Origin: a virus | Virus record (IMG/VR): IMGVR_UViG_3300029305_006219 | Length of the DNA: 64,000 nucleotides | Reading direction: 5' to 3' (one strand) | Part shown: one piece after another, positions 2,705-64,000 of the stretch | How the letters are laid out: every line of letters starts with the position of its first letter | Numbering within the stretch: the first letter of the stretch is position 1 | Notes under the pieces: model-generated | The model's input: only the letters and a program-made list of their open reading frames with translations | What the model was told of the DNA's origin: nothing | Database searches by the model: none | Position numbers and translations under genes: made by a program

Positions 2705-3187
2705 TTAACTAATCCTTTCTGCGTATTGATTGGGAGAAGCCAATTTTACGCCAAGTATTTCATCATAATGTGACTCAGTATTTGGAATATAGCGCCCAAA
2801 TTTTATTATGATGTTTGAAAATTGTTTTAATTGAATTAATTCATTTTCAATCTCATCTTTATTATAACCTGTATAGATAATAATATCATCATTTATAGAA
2901 TAACATTCTCTAAAAACAAAGATAAGATTTAACAGGTCTTCAAATGTATCAAAAGGTTCTAGACCTTGGAAGCATATCGCGCGCGCGATAGGGTTGTTTC
3001 TATAAGCTTGTACTATTGAAGTGTTAGCAATTTCTTTATCAGGTGCGGCCACCAGTGCGCTATTTTGACACACTGGTTGGCCGCATTCACGATCGCATTT
3101 AAAACCTTTACAAATAGGCGTTTCTATTGTCATACAAGGAACTTTATAATTTACAAAATCTTCAAATATAATTCCTTTTATTTTCAT
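2705..3187 (-). CDS. nrdG: Anaerobic ribonucleotide reductase activating protein (NrdG-like radical-SAM activase)
   Basis: Sits immediately downstream of nrdD with ATGA overlap. IIIYTGYNKDEIENE and GLEP motifs resemble NrdG WVWTGY.LDEL and GGDP. The Cys cluster is non-canonical. Confidence 0.55.
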   Translation of the reverse strand: MKIKGIIFEDFVNYKVPCMTIETPICKGFKCDRECGQPVCQNSALVAAPDKEIANTSIVQAYRNNPIARAICFQGLEPFDTFEDLLNLIFVFRECYSINDDIIIYTGYNKDEIENELIQLKQFSNIIIKFGRYIPNTESHYDEILGVKLASPNQYAERIS

Positions 3188-6100
3188 TTATTAATAGGCT
3201 CCCATTTTCTCATTTTATATTCATTAGTTCTTTCTTTTGACCACGTCTTTATAGGGGTGTAAAAGCCAACGATACGAGTATATTCTGTTTCAACTGGTCG
3301 ACCACATACTGGACAAGTGCGTCCATAGAAGGCATGGTTATTATCACAAGCTTGAATCTTGGTATTAAAAGCAAAATATGTTACTCCTGCATCAGAGATA
3401 TAATTAACCATATCCCAAGCCTTATCAAAACTATCAAATGGGGCATCGATATTGGCGTGTAGGATCGAACCTCCATTGCAATATCCATCAAACTCTGCGG
3501 CGATACGTACGCGCTCGGCAAGGGTTGTTTGTATACCAAGCGGAATAAATTGATTACCATAAAGCGGTAAGTCAAAGATGCTCGCTTCCGGATAAAAGAA
3601 TTTGTCTTTTTTCATTAGCTTTGCGGCAGCCGACTCTCCGGGGATCTATTCAGTATTAACGTGATAATCGGCGCCTACCTCTGCAATAAATTCATCTGCC
3701 GTTTGACGTATAGTCTCAAAGATTCTTTTACCAAGCGACGAAGCATTTTCTGTATAGTAAACATTGCCAAATTCATCTGTACGAGTATAGCCAAAACGCT
3801 TCATTGTTTCATATACTCCGATAAAACCAATAGTATTATAAAGATGTTCAAAGTCGACTAACCCATTAGAAAAATTAGGTAATAGTCCTTTTTCAACATT
3901 ACGACGAATAATATTACGTACACAATGTAGTGCTTGAAGATTCAAAAGTGTCAACTTCTTCAATCCACATAGATATTCAAATTCATTAGCACTATCAAGA
4001 GCGAGGCGCGCGAGGTTGATTGTAGAGACTTTAACTGAACCGACTTTTAGTGCGGTACCTCCGATACTATTAAAATAACCTAGGTCTTTAATATCACTCT
4101 TCAAACGACAACAGTTAGAAAGTGAAGTTACTGAATCATCAATAAATAGGTTACTGTCAGACCAGCGCATATTGTGTTTAACTGCCCAGCGCGCAAAATC
4201 TTCATCTTGGAATTTACCTTCTTGTTTTAGTAGAGAGATTGAAAGTACTGGAAAAGTAAACATATTCTTGTCCCTGATATCAGCAACGGTTTCCATATAC
4301 CATTTTTGGAATTCAATAATTTCTTCTTCATAGTCAATCATAAATTCTCCATTAGGGAACTCACTGCCGCCAAATAAAGCTTCGTAGTAAGGACGATCAA
4401 ATACACTGGTATTAGTAAATGCAGATTGCGACCCATCGCGGACATAAGGTTGATTCACTGCGTATACAAAACGCTGGAAGTTTTGACGTGCATATTTCTC
4501 TCCATTTCCGCTACTCTTGATACCGAGATAGTCTTCTTCCATATCCTTATGCCAAAAGTAATACATATAAGGGATGAGATTAGGAAGTCCTACGGCGCCG
4601 GAGGAACGATTAGAAGCATAGCTAATAAACTCTTTAACAAAATCAACAAAAGTAGTTAAATGCTAAGCAGGCTCAGGATTAAAAGGTGCGCCAATAAAAT
4701 ATAGTCCTTTTTCAGCCAGGTCTTTCAGGTCATAAGCAAAACAATTATGAGATAGAATGTTGTTGCAAATAAAATGACCTGTTTTTGTTGTTAAGTCATA
4801 TACCTCAGGGCATTCATCAATATACTCTGAGTTATCAATAACTGAGACCCATCCATAGTTATATTCATATTGCTTGTTTTTAAAATTACCTTTACGAGTT
4901 AAAGGAATATATTTTTCAGCAATTTTAATACTTCCAATACGAGAAAAATATTCTTCGTTCGTTAAAGTGAAGCCAATCCCAAACATTGGTAACTTTTGTT
5001 CGAAGCTTCCAGCTCGATTATATCTAAATGGAGTGCGATCTCCTGCAAAAACCCCTTTGGAATGTAAATACATACTCAATTGATGGCATAGCGTTTCTGA
5101 GGCAATACGGATATGACAATGTCTATTTTTATATCCATCAATAGTACCATCGCCATCGATCATTCCCGCAATAATTCCATCCATAAATTCAGAAGGATAA
5201 GTCATGAAATATGATGGTAACTGCTTAGTTGCAGAAGTCTGACCTTTTAATAGTGAATTTAACCATTCTTCAAAAGGACTAACCTTTAAATAAATTTTTC
5301 TATCTCCACTTTCTGAATATGGAATATCATATTGGTCACAGATATATTTTAATTTTTCAGCTTGAGGAGAATCTAGTTTTTGAGCAATTACAAATTGACT
5401 ATTCAGACTATTTCCTTCGGAAAGAGCCATACCTAATATCCATCCTGTCTCTCTATTATAAGGAATTTGATATACAATTTCTTGATGACTTTCAGAATAT
5501 TTATTAGGCTGTATTGTAAAGACTCGATACTCACTAGTTACATCCTTTGCAGGAATATCTCCACAATCGGTAATAATAGGGTGATCTTCTGTTACAATTT
5601 GTGATAAACCATTTGCTAACTTGATAAAACGCATAGGTTTATTATTTGTGTGTTTAACTGCGCGAGTAATCTTAGTCCAACATTTTTCTCCAGTTTCTTC
5701 ATTAATATCAAGTATCTCGATATTTTTCGGGAAAAGTGCATTTTGTTCAATAGATACATCATATTTTTCTTCTGCTTCTGTATCCATATACAAAATATTT
5801 TCATACAAATTCTTAAGTGCAAAAGTGTATTCACGATGCACCTTGTCTCTTACTGTTACAAGTTCTTCACCCTTATAGCAGTAATGTTTAAAGGTCGAGG
5901 TATCAGCATCATGCATGTAGAGCTGACCAATCCATTCGGCGCGCAACCACTCATTTGCACGTTTAAAACCAAAATGTTTTTGCATCTCATAATGAATTTT
6001 ATTATAAGCTAATAATTTTCTATGAGGTTTTGGCATTTCGTTTAAGAGAGTTACAATATCTTTTTTACTAACATTACTATTGCCATCAATACTCGCGTCA

Positions 6101-6321
6101 GCTACGACTTTGGTATCGATAAATGAACTAATAAAATCTGTGTAACTTAATTGTTCATCAGCAAATCCATTAAGCTTTGCCATTTCAGTTCCAAATTCAT
6201 CTTGCATTTTGTTATAAGCAGTAACAAAATTTTTCTTTAATTTAACATTAACTTCCATATCTCCAATGATATCCTCCTGTTGTTTGTAAAAATCCTTGAC
6301 AGCATCGAGATATGTTTTCAT
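3184..6321 (-). CDS. nrdD: Anaerobic ribonucleoside-triphosphate reductase NrdD, intein-containing, read through 2 in-frame TAG codons
   Basis: ORFs 4663..6333, 3646..4566 and 3184..3615 are one reading frame separated only by TAG at 4663-4665 and 3646-3648. C-terminus has a CPVCG zinc site and a RIVGFYTP glycyl-radical motif. TGA stop overlaps the nrdG ATG. Confidence 0.85.
4744..5880 (-). mobile_element. Intein (about 379 aa) with LAGLIDADG homing endonuclease domain inside nrdD
   Basis: Starts CYKGEEL and ends ILSHN followed by +1 Cys (CFAYDLKDL, aligning with E. coli NrdD FNC-MLIDLKG). Contains LGMALSEGN and IAGMIDGDGTI dodecapeptide blocks. Confidence 0.7.
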
Positions 6322-6922
6322 GATGTATGCCAAGCTCTTTCTCTGCTTCTGCTAGAGATTTAAAGTTTTGATTTAGCTCCACACAATAAACTGGAGTAAC
6401 TCTTTTATCTTCAGATAGAGGAAGATTATTTGATAAATAATCTTCATAGTATGTCCAATGAAATTTATATGCAGTGTGTAATTTTCCACGACAACACGCA
6501 ATAATATTTGCATTAGCAAAACCCTTTAATCGTTCAATTTCTTTTGCGCTATCAAAAACCTTTTGTGTTTCTAAACATATAATTTTTCTTTTTGTTTTAC
6601 AACTATTACTCATTTTTTGACGAGATTCTCTTGAATATTCATTATTCAATCCGCCACTTTTTATATTATAGCCACTATTCACAGTATCATATTTTGTGAT
6701 AAGTTCTTCTTCTTTTTGATTAGCTTCCTGTAATGTTAAGTTCTCATATAAAATAGTCTATTCAAAATTATCCCATCCATATTTTTCAATAGCATGATAA
6801 AATTTAACACAGCCAGTATAGTTAGAGGGGTGACAGCGACGCGTGATATCTTTAGACTAACCAATATATTTTTTGCCATTTATTTTATTGGTATAACAAT
6901 AAATGCAATATTGATTATCCAT
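6248..6922 (-). CDS. GIY-YIG homing endonuclease (HE1) between nrdH and nrdD, 2 in-frame TAG
   Basis: N-terminus MDNQYCIYCYTNKINGKKYIG[TAG]SKDITRRCHP...YGWDNFE[TAG]TILYENL, then the C-terminus of ORF 6248..6682 with two C-x-x-G...GY.W.Y repeats. TAGs at 6857-6859 and 6758-6760. Confidence 0.8.
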
Positions 6923-7139
6923 TAGCATGCTCCTTTGCCCAATTAGTAAACCACTTAATAGCTTCTGGGCCTGTATAGATAGTACCATCCATACGAAGCG
7001 CGGGAGCAGCTTTTACTCCAAGAGCAATAATTGCATCTTCATCTTCAATATGCTTATAGCTGATACCAGCTTTATCCATTTTCATTTTTAACACTTTGCA
7101 CTGGGGGCATCCAGGCTTTGAATATAAAGTTATATCCAT
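6915..7139 (-). CDS. nrdH: NrdH-like glutaredoxin
   Basis: 74 aa with a CPQC redox motif, adjacent to the nrd genes. Confidence 0.7.
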   Translation of the reverse strand: MDITLYSKPGCPQCKVLKMKMDKAGISYKHIEDEDAIIALGVKAAPALRMDGTIYTGPEAIKWFTNWAKEHANG

Positions 7140-8000: not shown

Positions 8001-11000
8001 TCATTCTTCCATATCCTTTCTTTCATGAACTAGTTCCATATCGCGTCCGTTATTAAGCAATGATATTTTATAGATTTGGTGCGTCGGGGTATGCTTATAG
8101 GTCTTGGTTACGAACTGGTCACCACGTTTATAGCCAGTTAAAAGTAGCATCGTTCCTCTCTTAAACCAGCCCTTTTCTGTTATCTTCTTAGATCCATCAT
8201 CCTGAAGCTCCGACAATTGTTTCTTGTACTGCGCATAATATTCCTTCGTAAACTTAACAGTGACAACACCGCTTGGAGTTAATAGAGTAATAGATGCTTT
8301 ATTATCATTTTTTGCGATTACAGTTCCGATAATCTTATGCGTTTTCCAAATCGGAATCTGTTGACCATTGCGCTTGAAATAGTAGTCAACCTCGGGCTCT
8401 TCTGGAAGCGCAAAGAAGTTTGAAATACCATACTTATAGGTGTCAACATTTGCTAACTCATGCTCGTGATAATAGAAACATAGAGACTCCATTTCCCAAG
8501 AGGATAAAGATCCTTGAGCATATTTATTCCAAGTATCCATAAAGAGCTGTGTATTGAGTTGGCGCAAAACCTCACTCTGATTCTCCTTCAACCAATCACG
8601 GGCGCCATCCATCTGTTTCTGATAAATACCGTCCCAAGTCTTTTGTTGAATACAAGTTAATCCATTGATAACTTCAAGTTTTTCAATATCAAAGTGACCT
8701 TTATAGAATTTATCACAAGGTTCATCAAATACAAAGTATTTTCCAACTTTTGTATTTGCTTTGAGATATTTATTAAACTCAAAAACTCTGCGCTCAAAGT
8801 CAAGTGACTCTGGAACCAGACCACGCTGAATAAGTCCGTTAAAGTTCTGCAAAGTTAGTTTACTTTTAGGCTCACAAGCTTTTGATAAATAATATGCCAT
8901 AGCTACGAAACGAGGATGGATATTTAACTCTTTACCCCATTCTGCTTCAAGCTTATCAAAGGCGCCCGCCTTGATAAGAGAAATCATCTGTGTTTTATTA
9001 AGAGGACAGCGCTCCATAAAATCGGCGATATTAGCATACGGTCTGCCGCAAATTATCTGCTCAATAACTTCGCTATTGATTCCGCTTAATGCTTTCATAC
9101 CAAAGAGGATTTGATTATTTTCTACGTCAGGCTTAAAGCTGAATTGAGATTTGTTTATATCAACTAAAGATACATTAATACCAGCGGAAATAATATCTCC
9201 TAAAGCACGAGCAAGTTTTGTATAATCAGTCTGTTTATCTTTTGCCTCTTCATCGTCATCTTCATTGTCATAGCCTTCAAGTGAGCCACTATTAACAATT
9301 AGATTTGCGGTATTCCAATAAATTGGATTCCATCTAGTCGCAGCATACGCAGTCTGGAATCCTATAAATGAATAGGCTAGAGCATGGATTATGGAGAAGG
9401 AATAACCCATCTGGGGTCCAATTCCATGTTTCCATACATAGTGACCCATGCATGGAGAGCTAGCCTGATCAAGAACTTGTTGTTGTAAAGCAGGAATCTT
9501 AGACATTTGCTTTTTTCCGACAATTTTTCTGGCGGCGTTGGCATCTGCAAGGCTAAACCCACAAATCTTGGGATCCATCAACATCTGCATCATCTGCTCC
9601 TGAGAAGGTGGAACACCGTGAGACTTTAAGAAGTAAGGTTTTAATACCTCTTGCTCCTCTTTGGTTAAGCCAAATTCATCCATTTCTTTATACCAAAGGT
9701 TAATATTATTCTTAAAACGAACATACTTTTCCATTGGGGTTTCCTGACCTTTTTCATTTGTCATAAGGCGCATTAAACCATTGGCGTCCGCCAGCTCAAG
9801 GATACTTGATGGACGAATCTTTTTAGCCGCTTGGGCGCCCACATCTGAGTCAAACTGGAAAAGACCTAATACTGCAACATCTTGAATAGGTTTCCAATAC
9901 TTTTCTTCTTCAATAGGAAGAACATTCGGATGAAAATATTTATCATATATCTGGCGCAAGGTCATATCTGACTCTAATTCGCCAGTCTCTTGCAGCATAT
10001 TAATAGTCTCTACGAGTTTGTCTTGTACTTCTGTTACAAGGAAGTCATATTTCACCATTCCAAGTGCCTCACAAGTGTGAAGATCAAATTGCGTTATAAC
10101 TTCACCTTTTGGAGTTCTCATGAATGCGCCAAACTCATATGGATCTTCATCAAATAAAATTACTCCAGATGCGTGAGATGAGCGCTTGTTCTTAAGACCT
10201 TCAATCGAAGTCATAATTTCCAAAAGTCCAGGATAATGATTTACTTCTCGAACGAATGACGCTACTGGTTTACGATCTTTATCTGGGTTACCATTAACAA
10301 CATCATTGATACTCCATAAGAAACCACGCTCTTGCGGAACAAGAGAAGTAAGATACTGCGCCATATCAACATCAATACCGTCCGGATATTCTTCACTACG
10401 ATAGCCGCGGCAAGCGGTCAATATTGCGCTCTTTGTAGTTTCCGTACCAAAAGTTGCAATAAGAGTACAACCTAAGTTTGCGCGAGACAGTTCATCAATA
10501 TCTGTATTAAACTTGGCTCCACGTTCTTCTTTAATTTTCTTAAGAATATAGGGTCTTTTACTTGGACAAAGGTCTAAGTCGATATCACCGAGTTCTACTC
10601 TTTCCTTATTGAGGTAGCGCCAGAAGGGAAGATCCCACTCTATAGGATCAAGCTGGGTAACTCCAAGGAGATAATGGTTTAGGCCTGAGCAGCTTGAACC
10701 ACGACCGGCGCCAACCATAGAACCGCATTCCCAAAAGAGATCAATATAATGCTGAAGAGTGACAGGATATGCAAACATATTTGTTTCCAATTTTTCACTA
10801 ATCGTTCTCTTGATATCTGCTTCTTCTTCAAGTCTGTCGAGATATTGAGAAAATTCAACGATTAAATCATAACTGGTAGCTTTCTTTTTATTTGCCAAAC
10901 TTTCAAAACATTGATTTACCCAATATCGTTCCACCTTATTTTCAGAATTAAATAGACTATTCAAAGTAGGGTAATGTGTACCGATAAAATATTCATCGTC

Positions 11001-11975
11001 ATTACCAGATTTTGTTAAATCAACTTGCGGATACTCTTTTACTTCAACTTTAGGAATTCTTTGCTTATGTCGAATACTGTAATTTTCAATTTTATCATAG
11101 ATAGATAAGCTATTTTCAAATAAATTGCTAATATAATTATCATCATTGAAAGATTTTCGTAAGTTTTCAAAAATCTCGTCTTCAGTTTGAAGATAAGAAT
11201 ATTCATAGAAGCTATCTACTTCTCTCTCGCCGCCTTTTGAATTAAGATACGCTTTATGAACATATCTATCCTTCTTTGAGAGATAATGTGCGTCGCTGCC
11301 AATTACCATTGGAATCTGCATTGCATCAGAGATTTGACGCAGCTTTTTATTAACCACTATCTGATCTCTTGAAGCGGCGGGCGCGCACTCTAAATAAAAG
11401 TCGTTTCCAAAAAGATTCTTACACCAAGAGATAAAATCAATGATATGATTATACTCTCGCTGTCTTGTATCCATATCAAACATAGCTTCTGCACTTACCA
11501 TATTTGCGACTGCTGTTGATAATTCTCCGCCGAGACAAGCGGTTGTTGCTATAAGTGAATTTGGATATTTGTTTACAATTTCTTCGAGATCTGATTTAAG
11601 AGTTACTACTCTTTCCATGCCGCGATCCCAATAGCTATTGAGCCAAGCGCGCGATGATAACTCTCTTAATGCGCGCCATCCATTAAAATTTTTCGCCAAT
11701 AAGATAAAATGCCAATATTTTTGTCCAGTTTCTCTAGTATTGCATAAATAAATCTCGTTGCCTAAAATAACTTTAAAATCAGGATATTTTTTTTGAATTT
11801 CTTCTGCATAAAAATTAGCCTCTGGTAGTCCAGCTAAAGTTTCATGGTCTGTAATAGCAATTCCTTGAAGTCCTATTTCTACTGCCTTATCTATAAGACG
11901 TTGTACAGTGTTTACGCTATCTAACAATCTAATATTACTATAATCACTATGAGTATGAATTTCACATCGTTTCAT
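8001..11975 (-). CDS. dnaE: DNA polymerase III alpha subunit (DnaE-type replicative polymerase with PHP domain)
   Basis: 1324 aa. N-terminal PHP motif MKRCEIHTHSDYS...ITDHE. No in-frame TAG. GGAGG RBS upstream. Confidence 0.85.
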   Translation of the reverse strand: MKRCEIHTHSDYSNIRLLDSVNTVQRLIDKAVEIGLQGIAITDHETLAGLPEANFYAEEIQKKYPDFKVILGNEIYLCNTRETGQKYWHFILLAKNFNGWRALRELSSRAWLNSYWDRGMERVVTLKSDLEEIVNKYPNSLIATTACLGGELSTAVANMVSAEAMFDMDTRQREYNHIIDFISWCKNLFGNDFYLECAPAASRDQIVVNKKLRQISDAMQIPMVIGSDAHYLSKKDRYVHKAYLNSKGGEREVDSFYEYSYLQTEDEIFENLRKSFNDDNYISNLFENSLSIYDKIENYSIRHKQRIPKVEVKEYPQVDLTKSGNDDEYFIGTHYPTLNSLFNSENKVERYWVNQCFESLANKKKATSYDLIVEFSQYLDRLEEEADIKRTISEKLETNMFAYPVTLQHYIDLFWECGSMVGAGRGSSCSGLNHYLLGVTQLDPIEWDLPFWRYLNKERVELGDIDLDLCPSKRPYILKKIKEERGAKFNTDIDELSRANLGCTLIATFGTETTKSAILTACRGYRSEEYPDGIDVDMAQYLTSLVPQERGFLWSINDVVNGNPDKDRKPVASFVREVNHYPGLLEIMTSIEGLKNKRSSHASGVILFDEDPYEFGAFMRTPKGEVITQFDLHTCEALGMVKYDFLVTEVQDKLVETINMLQETGELESDMTLRQIYDKYFHPNVLPIEEEKYWKPIQDVAVLGLFQFDSDVGAQAAKKIRPSSILELADANGLMRLMTNEKGQETPMEKYVRFKNNINLWYKEMDEFGLTKEEQEVLKPYFLKSHGVPPSQEQMMQMLMDPKICGFSLADANAARKIVGKKQMSKIPALQQQVLDQASSPCMGHYVWKHGIGPQMGYSFSIIHALAYSFIGFQTAYAATRWNPIYWNTANLIVNSGSLEGYDNEDDDEEAKDKQTDYTKLARALGDIISAGINVSLVDINKSQFSFKPDVENNQILFGMKALSGINSEVIEQIICGRPYANIADFMERCPLNKTQMISLIKAGAFDKLEAEWGKELNIHPRFVAMAYYLSKACEPKSKLTLQNFNGLIQRGLVPESLDFERRVFEFNKYLKANTKVGKYFVFDEPCDKFYKGHFDIEKLEVINGLTCIQQKTWDGIYQKQMDGARDWLKENQSEVLRQLNTQLFMDTWNKYAQGSLSSWEMESLCFYYHEHELANVDTYKYGISNFFALPEEPEVDYYFKRNGQQIPIWKTHKIIGTVIAKNDNKASITLLTPSGVVTVKFTKEYYAQYKKQLSELQDDGSKKITEKGWFKRGTMLLLTGYKRGDQFVTKTYKHTPTHQIYKISLLNNGRDMELVHERKDMEE

Positions 11976-11978
11976 TTT

Positions 11979-12866
11979 TTATTCTATATACCTCCAATAA
12001 TATCCATATGCTTTTCTTTGCTTTCTGGCAGCTGCGCAAATATTACTTTTATCTTGTAATCCTAGAGCTCTAGCTGCATCTGCTCCAGAGTCATATTCAG
12101 CAATTATGCTATTATCTAACGTGAGTTGTTGAATTCTTTTCTTAGGGCGTCCACTAGATAACTTATTCTAATAAATTTGTACCCACTCTTGGATATCTCT
12201 TTCATCTGCTTTGTATTTCCAAAGAAAGCCGTAAGCACTTTTCTATTTCTAAGCACATACCTAACTAATTGCTGTTTGTTGAAAACCATTAGCCCTGCCG
12301 CACTCTGAGGCTGATTCCCATTCTTGGATAAAATATCCATTTAAATCATACTGTAGTACAGGATAAGCACATCGTTTTGCTACTGCGCAACCAAATCTTG
12401 CGGCTATCTCTTCTCGTGAAATTCCTGCTCCTCTTAATCGAAGTCGGGCAGTTTTTTTTGAACAGCCTATTTTTTCAGCAATTTCTTTAATTAAAAGACC
12501 TTGATTCCAGCCATCAAGAAAAAGCTGAGTGGGATATAGAATCGCCCCTTGTCCTCCAAGAACTGCATTGTATCCATTATTAGGGTCGGTGCTGTCAAAA
12601 TATTCTATATAATACATTTCTCGCTCAAATCTAATTTCATCAGGGCATTTCTCTAGCGTTTCAATAATAAAATTTTGTTCTCCGTATTTTCGTATAGCAC
12701 AAGAAATATGATAATAATATCCATGATCACCTTCTTTAGAATGAGCCCTTCTTATATGTTCCCTCCACCTTGTCTCAACCCCTCGAATAGTTTCTCCTAT
12801 ATAAACTTTATTGTTTATTTGGTTGGTAATTTTATAAATATAAGCCATAAAATGCTCTCCTTTCAC
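11979..12866 (-). CDS. GIY-YIG homing endonuclease (HE2), 4 in-frame TAG
   Basis: MAYIYKITNQINNKVYIGET...R..H, then reading through TAGs at 12261-63, 12249-51, 12243-45, 12168-70 gives two C-terminal repeats KSAYGFLWKY and RKQRKAYGYYWRY. TAA at 11979-81 lies 3 nt before the dnaE ATG. ORF 12116..12340 in the other frame is spurious. Confidence 0.8.
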
Positions 12867-12932
12867 TTTGTTCTTATATATATAAGAAAAAAGTGATAAT
12901 AAAATTATTGAGATTTGACCTTAATTTTACTC

Positions 12933-25700: not shown

Positions 25701-26690
25701 TACCCTCTTTTTCAAGATATTTTAATGGGAATAGACTATATCTTCATCCATTTTAAACGGTGGATGTCATGCACTTCGATTTAAAGGATTTTCACCTACT
25801 TTTATATTATTATAAAAGCCCTACTCCTGTTGAGGAAATTTCATCCTCCAGTGGGATAGTCGTTGAACCTTCTCCTATTCGGAGCTTGGCTGCTGATTGC
25901 CCAATTTAATCAATTTTTAACATTCGCACTTAGATTTCTTTCATTCTTATGCTGTAGTTTGATTAACTCTAAGGGGTTTCCAGCAATTCACATGATTTGC
26001 TTAATGGATTGCTCCATTAAGGGCCTTATATATTTCATATTTTCGTCTCAACCGAGAGGCCTCGGTTGAATGTTCATAAATTTTATTTAAAATTTGTACA
26101 ACTGCAGCGCCTTCTTTATGAATTTGATAAGCAGAGGTTCCACAAGGACTTACTTTATTATCAAACTCTAAAATTTCTAGCATTTGTTTTGTGCAGATCT
26201 CAGTTTGACTGACAAAACTTAAACTAGGAATATTGTTTCTATCTTCTCTAATGTGAATACTACCATCTGCATCTAGCAATCCTCTTGCAAAATCATAAAT
26301 ATATTCATTAGGAATGTTTTCAAGGGGAATACTAAAAATAGAGGTTTTTGCAGGTACTATATTATATTGTGCTAAATAACGTTTTAACTCTGCCGAGTTT
26401 ATAGATACAGTTAAAGCATGACATCCAGTGTTATTAGTACGCTCTGTAATGGGCGCATTAGATTCAAAGAATGCTTGTAAATTTTCAAGCTGCTCTCTAT
26501 CTATATCTTTTAACTCAACTCTTACTCTGGCTTCATTTTTAGCTACATTTCCATCTCCAGCTAAAAATCCAAGCCAATAATATTTTTCATGAGGGTCTAT
26601 TTTAATGTTTGTTAAATTTAAAGGATATTTTCTCAAAAAACTTTCAACTCCTTCTTTAAGAGAGCGAAAATATGAAATAAAAATGTTAAG
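25700..26690 (-). mobile_element. Group I intron interrupting the AAA_24 ATPase gene and carrying a LAGLIDADG endonuclease ORF
   Basis: Minus-strand core elements: P-like AATTGCTGG (about 25950), Q-like AATCAGCAGCC (about 25890), R GTTCAACGACTA (25849-25860), S AAGATATAGTCT (25726-25737). Upstream exon ORF ends at a TAA at 26686. Boundaries are approximate. Confidence 0.6.
26001..26636 (-). CDS. Double-motif LAGLIDADG homing endonuclease (intron-encoded)
   Basis: LGFLAGDGNV and ARGLLDADGSI motifs. TTG start with an AAGGAG RBS. Confidence 0.75.
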   Translation of the reverse strand: MRKYPLNLTNIKIDPHEKYYWLGFLAGDGNVAKNEARVRVELKDIDREQLENLQAFFESNAPITERTNNTGCHALTVSINSAELKRYLAQYNIVPAKTSIFSIPLENIPNEYIYDFARGLLDADGSIHIREDRNNIPSLSFVSQTEICTKQMLEILEFDNKVSPCGTSAYQIHKEGAAVVQILNKIYEHSTEASRLRRKYEIYKALNGAIH

Positions 26691-30308: not shown

Positions 30309-31598
30309 CATTAATTTTGACTATTTTTTACTGTAATTTTTATTACAGGAAACCATTTCGGCATTTAAAGTACTTCGTTTCCTAAAATACTACTATGTGC
30401 TAATAATAGCCCTACTTCCCCGCCCATAAGGCCTAGGGAATAGTCGATACAGGTTTTTCAATTAATCCATTATTTTCTAGCAGGATAATCATAATCTTTA
30501 AGAATATAAGTTTTTCCTAAATTAATATTACTTATAGTTGAACGCCCTATGTTATATTGTGCACCAATATTATCCATAGAAGTATTAGTATTACGTAACA
30601 GATCTAAAATATTCTAAACATCCTCTAAAGTTAAATTATGATTATTGCGAATGTTTTTTGCTCTAATAGGATAACTATATTTCCCTATTTCTGCAAATTT
30701 TCTTCCATTATTAATGTCTCTTAATACCCTGATTGGAATATTATATTTAATATCTATACCACCTTGAATTGGTAAATCCCAACGATACAATAAATCTTCT
30801 TTTAAATTAACTAGCTCTTCTTCGGAGGAAAAATAATCTAAAACTTCTGTCTTACACGCTGAGTCATGATTATTTTTTCTTAATGGGTAAACTAAGTTTG
30901 GATTAACATAGGTTCTACCTGTTGAAATATTTAATATAGTACCTTGTCCTACTCCATATTTATTACCTATCTCTGTTAAAGAAAACTCTGTATGATTAAT
31001 TAACAAATCAATTATTTCTTTAAGTTGATTTTCATTTAAAGCTGCATTAGGATTTTCAGTCCCTCGTTTCCCCGAAGCGTCTCCTCCTCGGGTTTTATTG
31101 TATCCGTGTCCATCTTTAATATAGGTTTTATAAAAGGAAATCCAATATCTTTCTTTATCATCTAATAACGATAAGTCAGAAACTGTTTCAAGTAATTCAA
31201 ACTCATCAATAATAATATTGTATTCTTTCATTTTTTGCTCACACAATAGAAGTTCTCTTGAACCATGTCCAGCTTGACTATAAGAATTATGCTCCATAAG
31301 TCTAGCTCGAATATTTTGAGCCTATCCAATGTAAGCTTTTCCGTTTGGGTAATTAATTTTATAAATTCCGCTAATAATGTCATTTGGTGTCATCTTAGAT
31401 AAAAATAATTTTTGCATTTTATGCCTCCTATAATGTTATATTCATCAGTTGTTCATATATATATTATTTTTATGGAAGATGGATTAATCAAAATTTCCCA
31501 CGAGATTGTATTTTATTAAAAAATATTTTCCTCGTTAGCCACTATAAGTTAGCGACCCCTAGCAGCTACTAGGTAAAGTTTTTCATCGGCCAACATTG
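30309..31598 (-). mobile_element. Putative group I intron carrying GIY-YIG HE4, inserted in GIY-YIG HE5
   Basis: 5' exon ends ...YIGQAGT, followed by an in-frame stop VNVGR*. Intron ends in G before exon 2 CAACATT. R-like TCGACTAT and S-like ATAGTCAA lie in the 3' 170 nt. Boundaries are proposed, not proven. Confidence 0.45.
30470..31417 (-). CDS. GIY-YIG homing endonuclease (HE4) with tandem C-terminal HTH repeats, 2 in-frame TAG
   Basis: MQKLFLSKMTPNDIISGIYKINYPNGKAYIG[TAG]AQNIRARL... then ORF 30614..31297. The TAG at 30614-16 reads through into a second HTH repeat DNIGAQYNIGRSTISNINLGKTY before TAA at 30470-72. GGAGG RBS. Confidence 0.75.
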
Positions 31599-32566
31599 AC
31601 CGCTTGTCCGATATAAGATATACCAGAGTCAATGTGTGTTATCTTATATATTCCACTGGCGCCCAACGCACCTACGCGCGCCGCAAGGTCATTGACTTTA
31701 TCTCTATAGAAAGTAGTCCATATAAGCATACGCAAAGGTCTTGCTTCGCGTAGATTATATTCAATACTTTGAAGATATGCCACGTCTCGCTTATCTGCCT
31801 CATTAAGTTGAAGAGTATAAAATGTTGCTTGATTTTTAATTTCTTCTTCACGAAGTTGTGCTTCCATTGTGGCGGCCTTGGTTGCACGAATTTTTTCTAG
31901 CTCTTTGCGGATTGAGTCTAGGTCGGCGCGCATTGCCGCCTCTTCTTCTTGTAATTCTTTAGACATTGACTATTGCTTATCATAAAATAATTGCACAAGA
32001 GTGTCAATATCTTGACGTCGCTCTTCAATTAATCCTTTTTCTCTTGCATCAAGTTCTTGAAGTCTGTCAAAATATAATTGATCAAGAGTGTCCACTTCAA
32101 TATCGAACTCTTGTTCGCGTTTTTGATATTCATAATCAAGAGTCTCACAATATTGTTCAAAGGAGGCGAGCGCAGCTGCCTTTAAGTCACCTGACATTGT
32201 CTCTACAGAGCTGCTGAAAGCAGCAATTTGCGCCTCAATTCCTGCTTTTTCAATTTGCTTATTTTGAATTTCATTTATTAACAACAATTTCTATTGAGTT
32301 AATTGATTTAATTCGTCGTAAGAATTTTTTGTTTTTTTACAGTTCTCTTCATATTTTTGAGAAATTTCATTGTTAGATTTTATCAATAAGTTATTTTGTG
32401 CTTCTAAGCTTTTGCGAGTTGCTTGTAATGACTAATTGAGTTCTTCTAGTTTCTAATTTTCTTCTGCTGTATAGCGATTAGCTTTTACAGATGTGGCTTT
32501 AACCCATACTCCATAAGCAAGACCGCTCACACCAAGAAGAATTGATATTACGCATAATACTATCAT
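31583..32566 (-). CDS. Membrane-anchored coiled-coil protein whose C-terminus is the 5' exon of GIY-YIG HE5, 4 in-frame TAG
   Basis: N-terminal TM helix MIVLCVISILLGVSGLAYGVWV, then a long coiled coil. ORFs 31970..32287 and 31583..31966 are joined by TAG 31970-72; further TAGs at 32453-55, 32432-34, 32291-93. Ends GASGIYKITHIDSGISYIGQAVNVGR*. Confidence 0.5.
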
Positions 32567-32948
32567 CTTTACAATTTAAGGGGTAATTGCATAATTACCC
32601 CTTATTTTCCTTTTTAATTAGTCTTCCGTTGCCTCAGGATCAAAACATTTTCCCGTTTCAGTTAGACGGATATATTTTACCTTACCGCCAGTTACAGCAA
32701 CCTCTTCACGATAAATAAGATCGTGGTGTCTTGCCATTGCTGTGAGGCATCCATTTACAGACTTTACACCGATACCAGTTGCTTCTGAAATATCCTATGC
32801 AGTAAAGTCCTCTCCATCATGCTCTCTTACATAGTTAAAAATTGTGAGTGAATTGTCTTTTAAAGCCATTGCCTTAATTCTCCTTTTATATCTTAATATT
32901 TGCAGTTTTTTATTCTCTGCTATTGTTATTATAATTATATAATAAATT

Positions 32949-41062: not shown

Positions 41063-41137
41063 TGGCAGGGGAGGTAGGAATCGAACCTACGTCTGTGGTT
41101 TTAGAGACCACGGTCTTGACCTTTCGACGACTCCCCA
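41063..41137 (-). tRNA. Amber suppressor tRNA, tRNA-Gln-like, anticodon CUA (reads UAG)
   Basis: Minus-strand sequence UGGGGAGUCGUCGAAAGGUCAAGACC GUGGU CUCUAAA ACCAC AGAC GUAGGUUCGAUUCCUAC CUCCCCU G CCA. The anticodon stem is 5 bp Watson-Crick and the loop is CUCUAAA. U1.U72, G2-C71, G3-C70 and the G73 discriminator follow the bacterial tRNA-Gln pattern. It closely parallels the tRNA-Gln(UUG) at 62245-62316. Confidence 0.75.
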
Positions 41138-51639: not shown

Positions 51640-54477
51640 TCACGAGTTATAATCGTTGTTTGCTATTATCATATCAGTTAGTTTTACAAAACCCTGAGAC
51701 ATTGAGTTGATGTCGACGTAAAACTGATTATCATAATAATTTGTATCGATAACCTGATTATATTCATCAACATAAAATCCGCTTGTGTTATATGGAGTGT
51801 TAATCCACTCTTGCCAAGTCATACCTTCTAAGGCGGTGTATGATGCTCCGTTAACGGTAAAGGTAATTATAGGCAATGTTCTTGTAAGAGTATATGTGTG
51901 ATTTGCTACGATTGTATCACTTGTTTTAACATATTTATATATGATGTTACCATCCTCATCTTCGTCTTCTCTCAAACATATAAGATTTCCCGTCATGTCC
52001 TCACAAACATATCCAGGTATCAATGGATCACTCCAATAATTTTCAGAAGGAACATAGTAACTGCCGTCGCTGGCGTTCATAAAATCAGCCCAAGTCATAC
52101 CCTCGGTGACTGTATATGATTCATCTCCTGCATCGTTACCGTCAATATAGAATGTTATTGTGCTAGGTGTTGGCTCTTCTTCGTTTTCAAAATTAAAGTA
52201 AATATCTATTTGAGTATCTGTTGAAGTCGTATAATCAATTGTAAGGTTATTGTTTTCAATATCGATAGAGTTAATATTTGAAGTTAAATTATCAATACCA
52301 TTTAAGGTTATTAATTCATTGTTCTACGAACCCATATTTATTGTTTTAGTATTTTCAGTTGCAAGAAGCTCTATTGATATTGGGCTTGTTATTTCTACTT
52401 CAATCCCTACAGCATCGATATAATAGTTACATCTTCCTATAATAATATCCAAATCACGACAATGTCTACCGCTACCATCATTAAGCCATACTGCGCCGAT
52501 ATATCCATCTCCATCTTCATCGATAATAGATTCTGCTACACAGTTTTCTTCTCCGTTAACAGTAAGAGAGTTCCAAATAACAAAATCCTTTGTATTATAC
52601 GCGCTATCGCACCATTCATACCACGTCATACCAGGCTCAGCCATGTATGTTATTCCTTCAATAGTGAAAGTGATTTCAAGTGTAATATATGAATCATCTA
52701 TATAATATACACCATTTTCTGTAATTGTATCATTATAAGATACCATCATCTTGATATCATCGCTATTGTAGTATACTGCGCCGATATATCCATCTCCATC
52801 TTCATCAGTTGCAGATGTTGCTATTAAGTCTTGATTATATGAGCTATTATAAGGAACAAAACCTGCTTTATTATATGAGCTATTACACCAATCGCTCCAA
52901 ATCATATTCCTATTAGATGTGTATTCTGTTCCATTAATAGTAAATGTTATTGTACTTGTTTCGTTTTCAAAACTAAAGTAAGCATCTATTTGAGTGTCGG
53001 TTGAAGTTGCATAATTAATTGTAAGTTCATTATTTTCATTAATATTAATAGAGTTGATATTTGAAGTTAAATTGTCAATACCATTTAATGTTAATCTATT
53101 CTATGAATCTATATTTACTGTTTTAGTATTTTCAGCGGCAAGAAGCTCTATTCTCATTGGACTTGTTGTTCCTGCTGGTATGTCTCCAATTGTGTATGTA
53201 TAATTTGCCATAATAAGACTACTTGGGAAAACTGGCTTACTACCATCATTGCAATATACCGCTACTTGTGATCCCTCTTCTACCACAAAACCATCTTGAA
53301 TAATATAGTATGTACCATATTCACTATTCACCCAGTCTTGCCAAGTCATACCTTCTTCAAATCTATAGAACTCGTCTCCCGTTAGATTATCTTCGATATA
53401 AAATATTGAGGTTGAAATAGGTAATGAATCTGAAACTATATATGAATGATTTATTCTAATAACATCACTGGGTTTAACAGCAGTGTACTCATTTAAAAGC
53501 ACATATCGACCTGTAGAATTTTCTATTATATAATCATTTTGAACTACATATTCTGCATCATCATTACTTGAAATACTATCAATCCATTCTTGCCAAGTCA
53601 TACCACTCTCGGCGAAATATGATTCTTTTTGCATATCATTTCCTTCAATATAAAATGTTATCATACCTACAATATAATCTCTATAAACACTCCAATTTGT
53701 TGCTGCTTTCCAATCATCAACAAGTTCATAGGGAACTCTAATTTTACAATTTGAAGGAATGTTTAAAAAAGCACTTGTATTAGCAAGAGTTGGTATACTT
53801 GTATGAAAAGAAAAATCGTAATATTGCATTGAAGTACAGTTGGCAAATGCGCTTGATCTAATAGTTGTAACGCCATTAGGAAAATTCATTTGTGTAAGAG
53901 CCTTACACCCATAAAAAGCTTGCTCTCCAATTGCTGTAATATTACTAGGTAGAGTTATGCCTGAAAGAACTTTACAACCGCTAAACATGCGATATCCAAT
54001 CCAGGAAATATTACTGGGTAAAGATATATCTATAAGAGATGTACAATTATAAAATGCTTCATCTCCTATTTTTGTAATACTATCGGGTAGACTTAAACTC
54101 TTAAGCTTAGCACAATTAGTAAAAACACCTACTCCAAGTTGTGTAATAGTGTTAGGAATAATTATATTTGCATTTGACTCAAGTCCATGACAATTTGAAA
54201 AAGCATAATCACCAATATAAGTAATATTATTTGGTATATTTATTTTTGTAAGATATGTGCAGCCCTCAAAAGCAGCTCGTCCTATTTTTGTTATATTAGC
54301 TAAATCCTGTGTAGTTATTTCAGTAATTGTTCTATCAATTATTTTAGCTAGTTTACTTTGTTCTTCTGTATCTGCATTTAAAGCCGTTACAATAATATCA
54401 CGATCGCAATATTTACCTGCTGTTTTTAAACGAATGGAAGATCCGCTTGTTACATTTATATTATGTTCAGCCATCAT
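51640..54477 (-). CDS. BspA-type leucine-rich-repeat tail fiber/receptor-binding protein with C-terminal tandem repeats, 2 in-frame TAG
   Basis: ORFs 53101..54477, 52324..52905 and 51640..52098 are one frame joined by TAG 53101-03 and TAG 52324-26. LRR_5 repeats (NITYIGDYAFSNC...). Repeated (R/S)IELLA(A/T)ENTKT(V/I)N(I/M)(D/G)S and GMTWQEW blocks. Confidence 0.6.
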
Positions 54478-54794
54478 TCTACCTCCCCATTATAAACAGG
54501 TAGGGCATTTATTACTGCTGAAACTATTTCATTTTTATCTTCATCTGTCCAATAATCCGTTCCTTTTACAGGAGTATAACCATCGTCACCTTTCTCTCCA
54601 GTTAATTCTAGAAAAGGAAGATTTCCTACCTTAGTCGTTCCATCTCCTATTTTTAATCGAGGCTTAGATTCTCCTCCTTTACCGTCAGAATAAATAATTA
54701 ACTCTCCTTTTAAAGGTATAAAAGTCGTAGCTAATTCCCATTCTGCGGCCGTACCTATTTTATGCTAGATACGAGCATTAATTTGTTTTGCCAT
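54474..54794 (-). CDS. Tail fiber N-terminal anchor-domain protein, 1 in-frame TAG
   Basis: MAKQINARI[TAG]HKIGTAAEWELATTFIPLKGELIIYSDG...RLKIGDGTTKVGNLPFL, plus a collagen-like GEKGDDG. TGA overlaps the ATG of the LRR gene. RBS AAAGGAG. TAG at 54765-67. Confidence 0.55.
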
Positions 54795-63007: not shown

Positions 63008-63161
63008 TGGTGAGCCAAGCGAGATTCGAACTCGCGACCCCGTGATTAATGGTGCTTGAGGTTAGATTCGAACTAACAACCTAAAGCCGACTAAGCCCCA
63101 GACTTTACCAATTAAACATACTCAAACAAGTCACGTGCTCTTCCATCTGAGCTACTGGCTC
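63008..63161 (-). tRNA. tRNA-Lys (UUU) interrupted by a 78-nt insertion in the anticodon loop
   Basis: Exon parts GAGCCAG UA GCUC AGAUGGAA GAGC A CGUGA CUU | 78-nt insert | UUAA UCACG GGGUC GCGAGUUCGAAUCUCGC UUGGCUC A CCA. After removal of the insert the sequence closely resembles E. coli tRNA-Lys and the loop reads CUUUUAA. Confidence 0.6.
63050..63127 (-). other. tRNA-like insertion element (acceptor/T-arm minihelix with encoded CCA) inside the tRNA-Lys anticodon loop
   Basis: GUUUGAG...GUUAG UUCGAAU CUAAC CUCAAGC A CCA. The 7-bp acceptor pairing and T-arm are perfect. No canonical anticodon arm could be folded. Confidence 0.45.
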
Positions 63162-63169
63162 ATATAATT

Positions 63170-64000
63170 ATTTACTTAGTTAGCTTTTTGAATAGCTCTA
63201 TATTTTCGCTTGAGTTTATTGATTATATTTCCATTAGCGGCATCGCGCTAAAGAATACTAATACGATTAAGTATTGCAAGTTCTCTATTTATCATTTTGC
63301 TTTATTTCCTTTCTTATCTTTATTACATAAATATTATATCATATTTTTTAATAAAAATCAATGAAAACCTTTGGAGTTTGCTTTTGCCTAATGGTGGTTA
63401 GGACAAAAGCTCTCTGCAACTCATTTTTCTTTGCTACGAGTAAACACAATAGATTGATAGGTTTTTACTAAGCTACCTTCAAACTTAATGGTGGAGAATA
63501 TGAGTAACGATCTCATCTGAACTTCTGCTTGCAAAGCAGACGACCACTCCATGCAGTCCCATTCCCCATAGGAAAGAGAGGGAGAGTTTTTATATCCAAC
63601 AAGAGAATCACTCTCCAAACTCTGATGTTTTACGAGGCGCCGAGTAATGCTTGTTGGCAGCATCAAGGCGTTGATTTAAAATGGCAGAAAATGTCGGTGC
63701 TGCCCCGCTACTCCGCATCCCAAATGCGGTGTGTTACTGTTACACTACATTCTCTATATTCCAGCTTTTAGATGCGGGAAGCTGGGCCCGCGCCTTTCAT
63801 AGCCTTGTTGGATAAACCTGCGCTATTACTAAGCTATCTTTATAAATCTCGCACTTCATCTTGGAGGCGAAACTCCAGCGGATGTTTGGCCCACCGCTGC
63901 CTTTCGGATATAAGTCTCACCGAGTATAACCAGCACTGTTTATATAGCGTCTGCCGCCTCGCTCTCTACTCTCTCTGTTGATTAGGTGAGAGGAATATCC
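63170..64000. ncRNA. GC-rich non-coding block at the window end; candidate structured RNA
   Basis: No convincing ORF, high GC relative to the phage genes, and contiguous with the tRNA cluster. ORFs 63421..63666 and 63529..63981 look spurious. Confidence 0.2.

Follow-up and report, generated by a model that had tools for sequence, protein, structure and literature searches.

In large phages, ribonucleotide reductase (RNR) genes are hotspots at which inteins, introns and free-standing homing endonucleases accumulate (PMC3653736, PMC2988022, PMC12880540). Mobile elements in phage RNR genes include the group I introns of T4 nrdD and nrdB, mobE, the SPbeta bnrdE intein and the elements that fragment such genes in Jug phages and crAss-like phages. 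Phage RNR inteins, including some in nrdD, and the combination of inteins with alternative genetic codes in gut phages have already been described (PMC3653736, PMC12880540), and a putative intein has been noted in the NrdD of Clostridium phage c-st / D-1873 (PMC3653736). Here we characterize an intein-like segment in the nrdD gene carried by a 64,000-nucleotide stretch of the virus record IMGVR_UViG_3300029305_006219 (IMG/VR), which is referred to below as the window and to which all positions refer. The segment is very probably a genuine class 1 intein with an embedded, probably active, double-motif LAGLIDADG endonuclease, and it sits directly before the codon for the catalytic cysteine of NrdD. 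As in other phage RNR hotspots, the window combines mobile elements, an intein and a GIY-YIG gene, in one operon; unlike the Jug phages, which reportedly do not use alternative codes (PMC12880540), the window phage reads TAG as glutamine.

Anatomy of the nrdD gene and its predicted intein

The nrdD gene lies on the minus strand, where positions 6333 to 3184 form one continuous frame that ends with TGA at 3186-3184; the sole interruptions are two TAG codons, at 4665-4663 and 3648-3646. There are no frameshifts across the 1,024 codons of the precursor. The start codon is probably the ATG at 6258 (MEVNVKL...), because homologues and the Thermotoga maritima structure begin at this peptide; this start would give a precursor of 1,024 residues and a mature NrdD of 645. 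The longer open reading frame (ORF), which extends up to 6333, is the other reading frame of the 3' end of a GIY-YIG gene that is described below. The gene can be divided as follows.

3184..6258, minus strand: nrdD precursor gene, 1,024 codons plus TGA, made up of N-extein, intein and C-extein
5881..6258, minus strand: N-extein, 126 codons, ending ...HDADTSTFKHY; its Tyr -1 corresponds to Tyr124 of T. maritima NrdD (tmNrdD)
4744..5880, minus strand: predicted class 1 intein with embedded LAGLIDADG endonuclease, 379 residues (precursor residues 127-505)
5506..5880, minus strand: Hint N-terminal lobe, intein residues 1-125, with blocks A and B; beta strands at 7-122 in the AlphaFold2 (AF2) model
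4861..5505, minus strand: LAGLIDADG homing-endonuclease domain, intein residues ~126-340
4744..4860, minus strand: Hint C-terminal lobe, intein residues 341-379, with blocks F and G
4741..4743, minus strand: +1 Cys codon (TGT), the predicted splice-junction nucleophile as well as the catalytic Cys
3187..4743, minus strand: C-extein, 519 codons, with the SNCCR finger-loop, the RIVGF glycyl-radical motif, a C-terminal Cys-rich region and the two TAG codons

A preliminary description of the window had placed a 379-residue in-frame element within nrdD, beginning CYKGEEL, ending ILSHN and followed by Cys, and had given coordinates for it without a strand. This proved exact to the base on the minus strand: CYKGEEL begins at 5880, ILSHN extends to 4744 after 379 codons, and the next codon is the TGT at 4743-4741. 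The flanks quoted with it, DADTSTFKHY/CFAYDLKDL (here and below, a slash marks the intein-extein junction or the site where the intein would be inserted), and the motifs LGMALSEGN and IAGMIDGDGTI are likewise present in the minus-strand translation. A plus-strand reading of 4744-5880 gave only a stop-ridden translation and was rejected, which places the feature on the minus strand.

By inspection, we identified all of the splicing blocks of an intein (A, B, F and G) as well as the Cys at +1. Block A starts with Cys1 (codon 5880-5878). Block B, the TxxH block, is GLSQIVTEDHPIIT and includes IVTEDHP, with T97 at 5592-5590 and H100 at 5583-5581. Block F is EVYDLTTKTGHFICNN, in the VYDLT...HFICNNILSHN region, with D362 at 4797-4795, and block G is ILSHN, with H378 at 4749-4747 and N379 at 4746-4744. 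Two LAGLIDADG motifs are found between the Hint lobes: ILGMALSEG, with E155 at 5418-5416, and IAGMIDGDG, with D244 at 5151-5149. In the AF2 model, each corresponds to a helix (143-155 and 230-244) that ends in the acidic residue and is followed by Gly. Ligation of the exteins would yield the junction peptide ...TFKHYCFAYDLK, in which FKHY is joined directly to CFAYDLK.

Removal of the intein restores a conventional reductase. With TAG read as Gln, NrdD without the intein scored 299.5 bits against Pfam NRDD (PF13597), and the spliced protein aligned end to end with the T. maritima NrdD crystal-structure sequences 4u3e/4coi (E~1e-146). This alignment was gap-free at the junction, where ...hdadtstfkhyCfaydlkdlaekgl... 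stood opposite ...HDRHHAALMPYCFAYTLKPIVEKGL... of T. maritima; YCFAY was aligned, SNCCR was opposite SCCR, and RIVGF was opposite RIVGY. The Cys at +1 thus corresponds to Cys125 of tmNrdD, Cys175 of Escherichia coli and Cys79 of T4. BLASTP aligned Cys175 of E. coli MG1655 NrdD with the same residue, and the E. coli string cited for this purpose in the preliminary description, DYSPFFPMFNCMLIDLKG, occurs verbatim in that protein. The cysteine equivalent to tmNrdD Cys125 is conserved in all ribonucleotide reductases, and the Tyr124 preceding it is conserved in the NrdD subclass that bears the SCCR finger-loop motif (PMC4493059). Collectively, these alignments identify the host gene as a class III ribonucleotide reductase, NrdD, of the T. 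maritima-like SCCR subclass.

Homologues and predicted fold of the intein

A search of a protein collection returned 29 homologues of the intein with 28-100% identity. One partial Thermotoga sp. protein apart, these are ORFs of ~270-600 residues, and those that are not fragments consist of an NrdD N-terminus, the intein and a short C-extein. All homologues that reach a junction have it at the identical position (...Y/CYKGEE... and ...SHN/C[FY]AYDL); the junction nucleophile is kept in every one of the 28 that bear a junction, and one homologue has Ser1. Many carry precomputed matches to PF14890, several carry matches to PF14528, and one has the JGI label "intein/homing endonuclease." In alignments down to 31% identity, T97, H100, Y361, D362, H378 and N379 were invariant among 12 family members, and E155 and D244 were conserved in at least 90% of members. 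Among 1.84 billion cluster representatives, phmmer found 294 matches at E≤1e-3, of which 20 were at E≤1e-30, which points to a small and specific family within the large intein superfamily.

A search of solved structures with the single intein sequence gave only marginal matches (PI-PkoII, E=0.11), whereas a profile built from 12 intein-only sequences matched the solved inteins TliVMA (4.7e-10), Pab PolC and Pho RadA and also matched I-DmoI. The AF2 model from the family alignment (predicted local distance difference test [pLDDT] 91.5; predicted template modeling score [pTM] 0.91) has an N lobe rich in beta strands (7-122) and a beta C lobe (343-378), which flank a domain of helices and beta structure. 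Its top Foldseek matches in the Protein Data Bank (PDB) were all endonuclease-bearing inteins, namely TliVMA (7qsu, 1.7e-18), PI-PfuI, PhoVMA, PI-PkoII and PI-SceI. Free LAGLIDADG enzymes and mini-inteins (RadA, PolII, TFIIB and NrdJ-1) followed, and full inteins and mini-inteins alike were matched at probability 1.00. Among the Foldseek matches that bear on the LAGLIDADG domain were I-DmoI (E~1e-6; target-normalized TM score 0.63), I-Tsp061I and, within PI-PfuI and PI-SceI, their endonuclease domains. The predicted fold is therefore that of a Hint domain with a pseudo-dimeric alpha-beta-beta-alpha-beta-beta-alpha LAGLIDADG domain.

This is the architecture of the solved inteins TliVMA and PhoVMA (7qsu and 7qst), PI-PfuI (1dq3), PI-PkoII (2cw7) and PI-SceI (1vde), in which a double-motif LAGLIDADG endonuclease splits the Hint domain. 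The chemistry expected from the residues at Cys1, TxxH, HN and the +1 nucleophile is also shared with these proteins, which were the best matches both by fold and by profile-to-sequence comparison. They differ from the intein of the window in their host proteins and share only 11-17% identity with it; moreover, splicing and cutting have been shown for them, whereas the window intein is known from sequence.

Presence, absence and selection among related phages

We scanned viral contigs with the spliced NrdD and kept the best 80 of 108 loci, which have extein identities of 53-94%. The junction is uninterrupted in 78 of these 80, at the site that corresponds to TSTFKHY/CFAYDLK, and only one locus, L068, carries the intein (79% intein identity). 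At the empty sites, the consensus reads ACATCTACATTTAAACATTAT/TGTTTTGCTTATGATTTAAAA, with TSTFKHYCFAYDLK as the most frequent peptide. The intein is absent from the closest extein relatives of the window, L006 (94%) and L007 (93%), but present in L068, whose exteins are more distant (83-90%). The intein-minus loci L006, L007 and L008 and the intein-plus locus L068 all come from one metagenome, 3300029305.

Between the window and L068, the ratio of nonsynonymous to synonymous substitution rates (omega) was 0.16 for the whole intein, 0.07-0.09 for the Hint lobes, 0.18 for the endonuclease domain and 0.03-0.045 for the exteins, indicating that intein and exteins are all under purifying selection. 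The strong constraint on the exteins of the two carriers lends indirect support to splicing. The synonymous divergence (dS) was 0.9 for the intein and 2.2-2.5 for the exteins. Because intein dS is far below extein dS, the common ancestor of the two inteins appears to be younger than that of their host genes, and this argues for horizontal transfer; extein dS is saturated, and the contrast is qualitative only. Together with the sporadic distribution of the intein, this contrast indirectly supports cleavage of empty alleles and homing. Together, the splicing blocks, the predicted fold, the family profile, the colinear exteins and the 78 empty sites all support the earlier proposal of a LAGLIDADG intein inserted before a conserved NrdD cysteine.

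Several points weigh against this reading, among them the saturation just noted. The match to Pfam Intein_splicing (PF14890; E=1.9e-7) reached 31.5 bits and is below the cut-off of 35.8, and the match to LAGLIDADG_3 (PF14528; E=0.006) reached 17.3 bits and is below the cut-off of 22.5. Ranking of the loci in the contig scan favors contiguous matches, and the fraction that bears the intein may thus be underestimated. Two acidic residues are not enough to establish endonuclease activity, and in one sub-lineage of the family (P0016, P0022 and P0023), the equivalents of both E155 and D244 are lost, so decay does occur in this intein family. Such a loss fits the phase of decay that a homing cycle is expected to include. 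The E value of the Intein_splicing match, together with the 29 homologues and the 294 matching clusters, indicates that the segment is no chance ORF.

The endonuclease may be questioned separately from splicing. The intein could splice while its endonuclease is inactive for homing, in which case it would be a resident, vertically inherited element whose middle domain is kept for folding only. The faster evolution of the endonuclease domain relative to the Hint lobes (omega of 0.18 versus 0.07-0.09) and the sister sub-lineage without both catalytic acids agree with such a history. However, E155 and D244 are kept here and in at least 90% of the family, and an omega of 0.18 is still a mark of selection on the domain. 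The low intein dS relative to extein dS between the two carriers, with the intein-free L006 and L007 nearer to the window than L068 is, also fits recent transfer better. We therefore regard an endonuclease that has lost its homing function as unlikely.

It is far less credible that the segment is a native, non-splicing insertion domain that is retained in the mature NrdD. Some RNR lineages do bear lineage-specific insertions, and the Pfam scores lie under the curated cut-offs. The segment, however, is missing without any gap at the site from 78 close relatives and from the T. maritima crystal-structure sequence, and it would part Tyr -1 from the catalytic Cys inside the active site; moreover, it has every catalytic residue of an intein as well as the intein fold. 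Blocks B and F/G are present and conserved, and homologues lack the segment, so neither of the two findings named in the preliminary description as able to overturn the intein, missing splicing blocks or a native insertion domain, was obtained. A native insertion domain is thus effectively refuted, and a class 1 intein with a probably active endonuclease is what these data favor.

TAG recoding and neighboring mobile elements

The neighbors of nrdD and two further features of the window are as follows.

6915..7139, minus strand: nrdH-like glutaredoxin gene (Pfam Glutaredoxin, E=7e-7), upstream of nrdD
6248..6922, minus strand: free-standing GIY-YIG/NUMOD homing-endonuclease gene, 224 residues, with in-frame TAG at 6859-6857 and 6760-6758 (contexts YIG-stop-S and FE-stop-T)
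2705..3187, minus strand: nrdG-like radical-SAM activase gene (Pfam Fer4_12), downstream of nrdD and syntenic in relatives
41063-41137, minus strand: suppressor tRNA with anticodon CTA (tRNA-CUA), found by ARAGORN (Rfam tRNA, 58.9 bits)
8001-11975: 1,324-residue ORF with the look of a PolIII-alpha-type polymerase, judged only from a precomputed HHH_6 match on its counterpart in the relative L001

Under the standard code, the TAG codons break nrdD into three ORFs, as would be seen in a decaying pseudogene that holds a dead mobile element and stop codons, but this is scarcely tenable, as the TAG codons align with Gln in homologues, the window encodes tRNA-CUA, the precursor is free of frameshifts over 1,024 codons, the extein omega is 0.03-0.045, nrdG and nrdH are intact, and no frameshifted or degenerate catalytic motifs or signs of TAG termination were found in nrdD. 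Specifically, the second nrdD TAG aligns with the Gln of the tmNrdD motif EQVPAE, and one TAG in the nrdD of L068 aligns with a Gln codon of the window. The tRNA-CUA would be needed to read the nrdD TAG codons, and hence to make the full C-extein. Stop-to-stop ORF statistics were only weakly discriminating with regard to recoding; the case that TAG is truly recoded to Gln rests on the alignments and the tRNA-CUA.

Many genes for replication and nucleotide metabolism in the window (for example, 11982-12920, 31586-32575 and 51643-54489, all on the minus strand) use in-frame TAG at a low rate, roughly 5-20% of their Gln positions. These codons also support recoding, which in this phage thus extends beyond late or structural genes. 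We also considered whether the intein avoids TAG as a result of an origin under the standard code. This idea was rejected: the intein has 0 TAG among 14 Gln codons and the exteins have 2 among 18, a difference that is not significant, and two relatives that were inspected added nothing. Two tRNA matches that ARAGORN did not list were found by Rfam at 63011-63161 and 63686-63754 (both minus strand); the first is 151 nucleotides long and may contain a long insertion or an intron.

The nrd locus had been proposed to carry three independent selfish elements: the intein, the GIY-YIG endonuclease gene and TAG recoding. The first two are upheld, whereas TAG recoding is a genome-wide property of the code, read by the phage's own tRNA-CUA, and is no selfish element. 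With TAG as Gln, the GIY-YIG ORF matched Pfam GIY-YIG, NUMOD1 and I-HmuI_NUMOD-like, all above their cut-offs. The gene is a mobile element independent of the intein, because L006 has it (88% identity) without the intein, while L068 has the intein but no GIY-YIG gene at the nrdH-nrdD position; it is also missing from that position in L007, L008 and L009. The GIY-YIG gene overlaps both of its neighbors, as its ATG lies 8 nucleotides inside the end of nrdH (6915-6922) and its stop lies 11 nucleotides inside the start of nrdD (6248-6258). In L007 and L068, no gene separates nrdH from nrdD, and the end of nrdH runs a few nucleotides into the nrdD match. The GIY-YIG gene is therefore a precise intergenic insertion.

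Other relatives of the window show further interruptions of this gene. In L115/L116 (2693-8355), nrdD is in at least four pieces and is accompanied by the same intein and by two GIY-YIG ORFs, one of which is directly upstream of a short exon that starts ~15 codons before the intein site. Several homologues in other relatives (for example, P0004, P0005 and P0012) diverge just past an NR[ST]SG motif, where an intron may therefore lie. By these sequence comparisons, nrdD is a hotspot for mobile elements in the phage clade of the window.

Elsewhere in the window, Rfam identified a full-length group I intron (RF00028; 78.2 bits, cut-off 50) at 25713-26068 on the minus strand. Just upstream and overlapping it is a 211-residue ORF (26001-26636, minus strand) with two LAGLIDADG motifs, LGFLAGDGNV and LLDADGSI. 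Intron and ORF are flanked by a P-loop ATPase-like ORF (27201 to 26686) on one side and a 163-residue ORF (25715 to 25224) on the other, and these two flanking ORFs probably represent exons of a single gene. The group I intron and its LAGLIDADG ORF thus appear to be another self-splicing mobile element in the window. We rejected a relationship between the intein endonuclease and this intron-associated ORF, as their likeness is limited to the motif.

Overall, the window corresponds to the module for replication and nucleotide metabolism in a large phage, with topoisomerase II, NAD ligase, DnaB, primase, a Dda-like helicase and RNA ligase, and contigs related to it are 120-165 kb in length. Megablast with the nrdD locus and tblastn with the intein found no match among GenBank phages, and thus there appears to be no close relative among isolated or deposited phages. 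Reductant for NrdD of this SCCR subclass is probably supplied by the nrdH-like glutaredoxin.

Distribution of NrdD inteins

A scan with the intein profile of one genome per prokaryotic species yielded 26 loci of 24-34% identity. These belong to Thermoplasmatota, Saccharibacteria and other candidate phyla radiation (CPR) bacteria, Bipolaricaulota, Peptococcaceae and Actinomycetota and to one Lachnospiraceae metagenome-assembled genome (MAG). In all 26, the C-extein starts at the same NrdD Cys (...HN/C[VAM]GWDL...KPxKH), and the host ORF aligns with NrdD from that Cys in nearly all of them; in L103 and L107, the alignment begins only further downstream. In the Thermotoga sp. MAG protein J7K79_00260, the intein lies before CFAYTLRPIVEKGLPFIK, which is uninterrupted in T. 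maritima. As these cellular inteins (Thermotoga sp., Thermoplasmatota, Saccharibacteria/CPR and Bipolaricaulota) are homologous to the intein of the window (24-34%) and precede the same catalytic Cys (...HN/C[VAM]GWDL or ...THN/CFAYTL), they and the window intein are alleles of one intein by the usual definition. They differ from it in that their hosts are cellular, their genes use the standard code and several of the NrdD ORFs hold two or three inteins. For example, four loci from CPR, Thermoplasmatota and Desulfobacterales MAGs (L098, L099, L089 and L107) have NrdD ORFs of 1,685-1,975 residues with apparently two or three inteins each, one of them at the Cys175 equivalent. L098 and L099 have a further insertion between extein residues ~322 and ~361, upstream of SCCR (~residue 373). 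We found no description of the same-site cellular NrdD inteins in the literature.

Comparison with NrdD inteins of Bacillus and Listeria phages, which had been suggested as a check, led nowhere. The nearest NrdD among GenBank phages is that of Clostridium phage c-st (41% identity), which belongs to the same NrdD subclass and has a LAGLIDADG-type intein that likewise ends in HN/C. This intein, however, lies inside the SCCR finger-loop motif, at SC/CR (ALASC/C...THN/CRLTSS), and the Y/CYAY site of c-st is uninterrupted. The two inteins share 26% identity over 205 residues. We therefore rejected the c-st intein as the same allele; it is at another site and is non-allelic.

Discussion

The course of splicing, cleavage and homing that we infer for this locus would be the following. 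The 1,024-residue precursor would be translated with the aid of the phage tRNA-CUA, which would insert Gln at the two TAG codons of the C-extein. Once the Hint domain has folded, an N-S acyl shift would take place at Cys1, helped by T97 and H100, and the thioester would be handed to Cys+1 by transesterification. Cyclization of N379, helped by H378 and D362, would then free the intein, and an S-N shift would form the native ...FKHY-CFAYDL... bond, a Tyr-Cys bond in the active site. The product would be a 645-residue NrdD whose catalytic Cys is the former +1 nucleophile. The freed intein would be expected to cut intein-free nrdD alleles of co-infecting relatives, with a predicted target close to ACCTTTAAACATTAC/TGTTTTGCTTATGA; the intein-free site of the L006 type reads ACCTTTAAACATTAC/TGTTTCGCTTATGAT. 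Recombinational repair would then copy the intein into the cut allele.

Disulfide traps between Cys1 and Cys+1 are known from other inteins. Here too both junction nucleophiles are cysteines, and the one at +1 is the redox-active catalytic Cys of NrdD itself. By analogy, splicing here could be redox gated, such that a Cys1-Cys+1 disulfide formed under oxidizing conditions stalls splicing and NrdD, an oxygen-sensitive enzyme, matures only when conditions are reducing or anaerobic. We consider this idea speculative and rather improbable. If it were true, the intein would be a posttranslational oxygen switch and not a pure parasite.

For annotation, the locus illustrates how gene callers that use the standard code cut nrdD into three ORFs, the first of which is labeled "hypothetical" or "intein," whereas a single intact class III reductase emerges once TAG is read as Gln and the intein is taken out. 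The coexistence in metagenome 3300029305 of the intein-plus allele of L068 with the intein-minus alleles of L006, L007 and L008 would let homing be studied, and the window supplies another Cys/Cys intein and another LAGLIDADG enzyme with a predictable target. The intein is a clean but unexceptional representative of a familiar class of selfish elements and leaves the current understanding of inteins unaltered. The locus is a tidy natural case of an intein on the single cysteine that is conserved in all ribonucleotide reductases, and one homologous intein holds this site not only in phages but also in Thermotoga, archaea and CPR bacteria. Its least ordinary aspects are that a single intein allele occupies the universal RNR cysteine in phages as well as in bacteria and archaea and that its splicing might depend on redox conditions.

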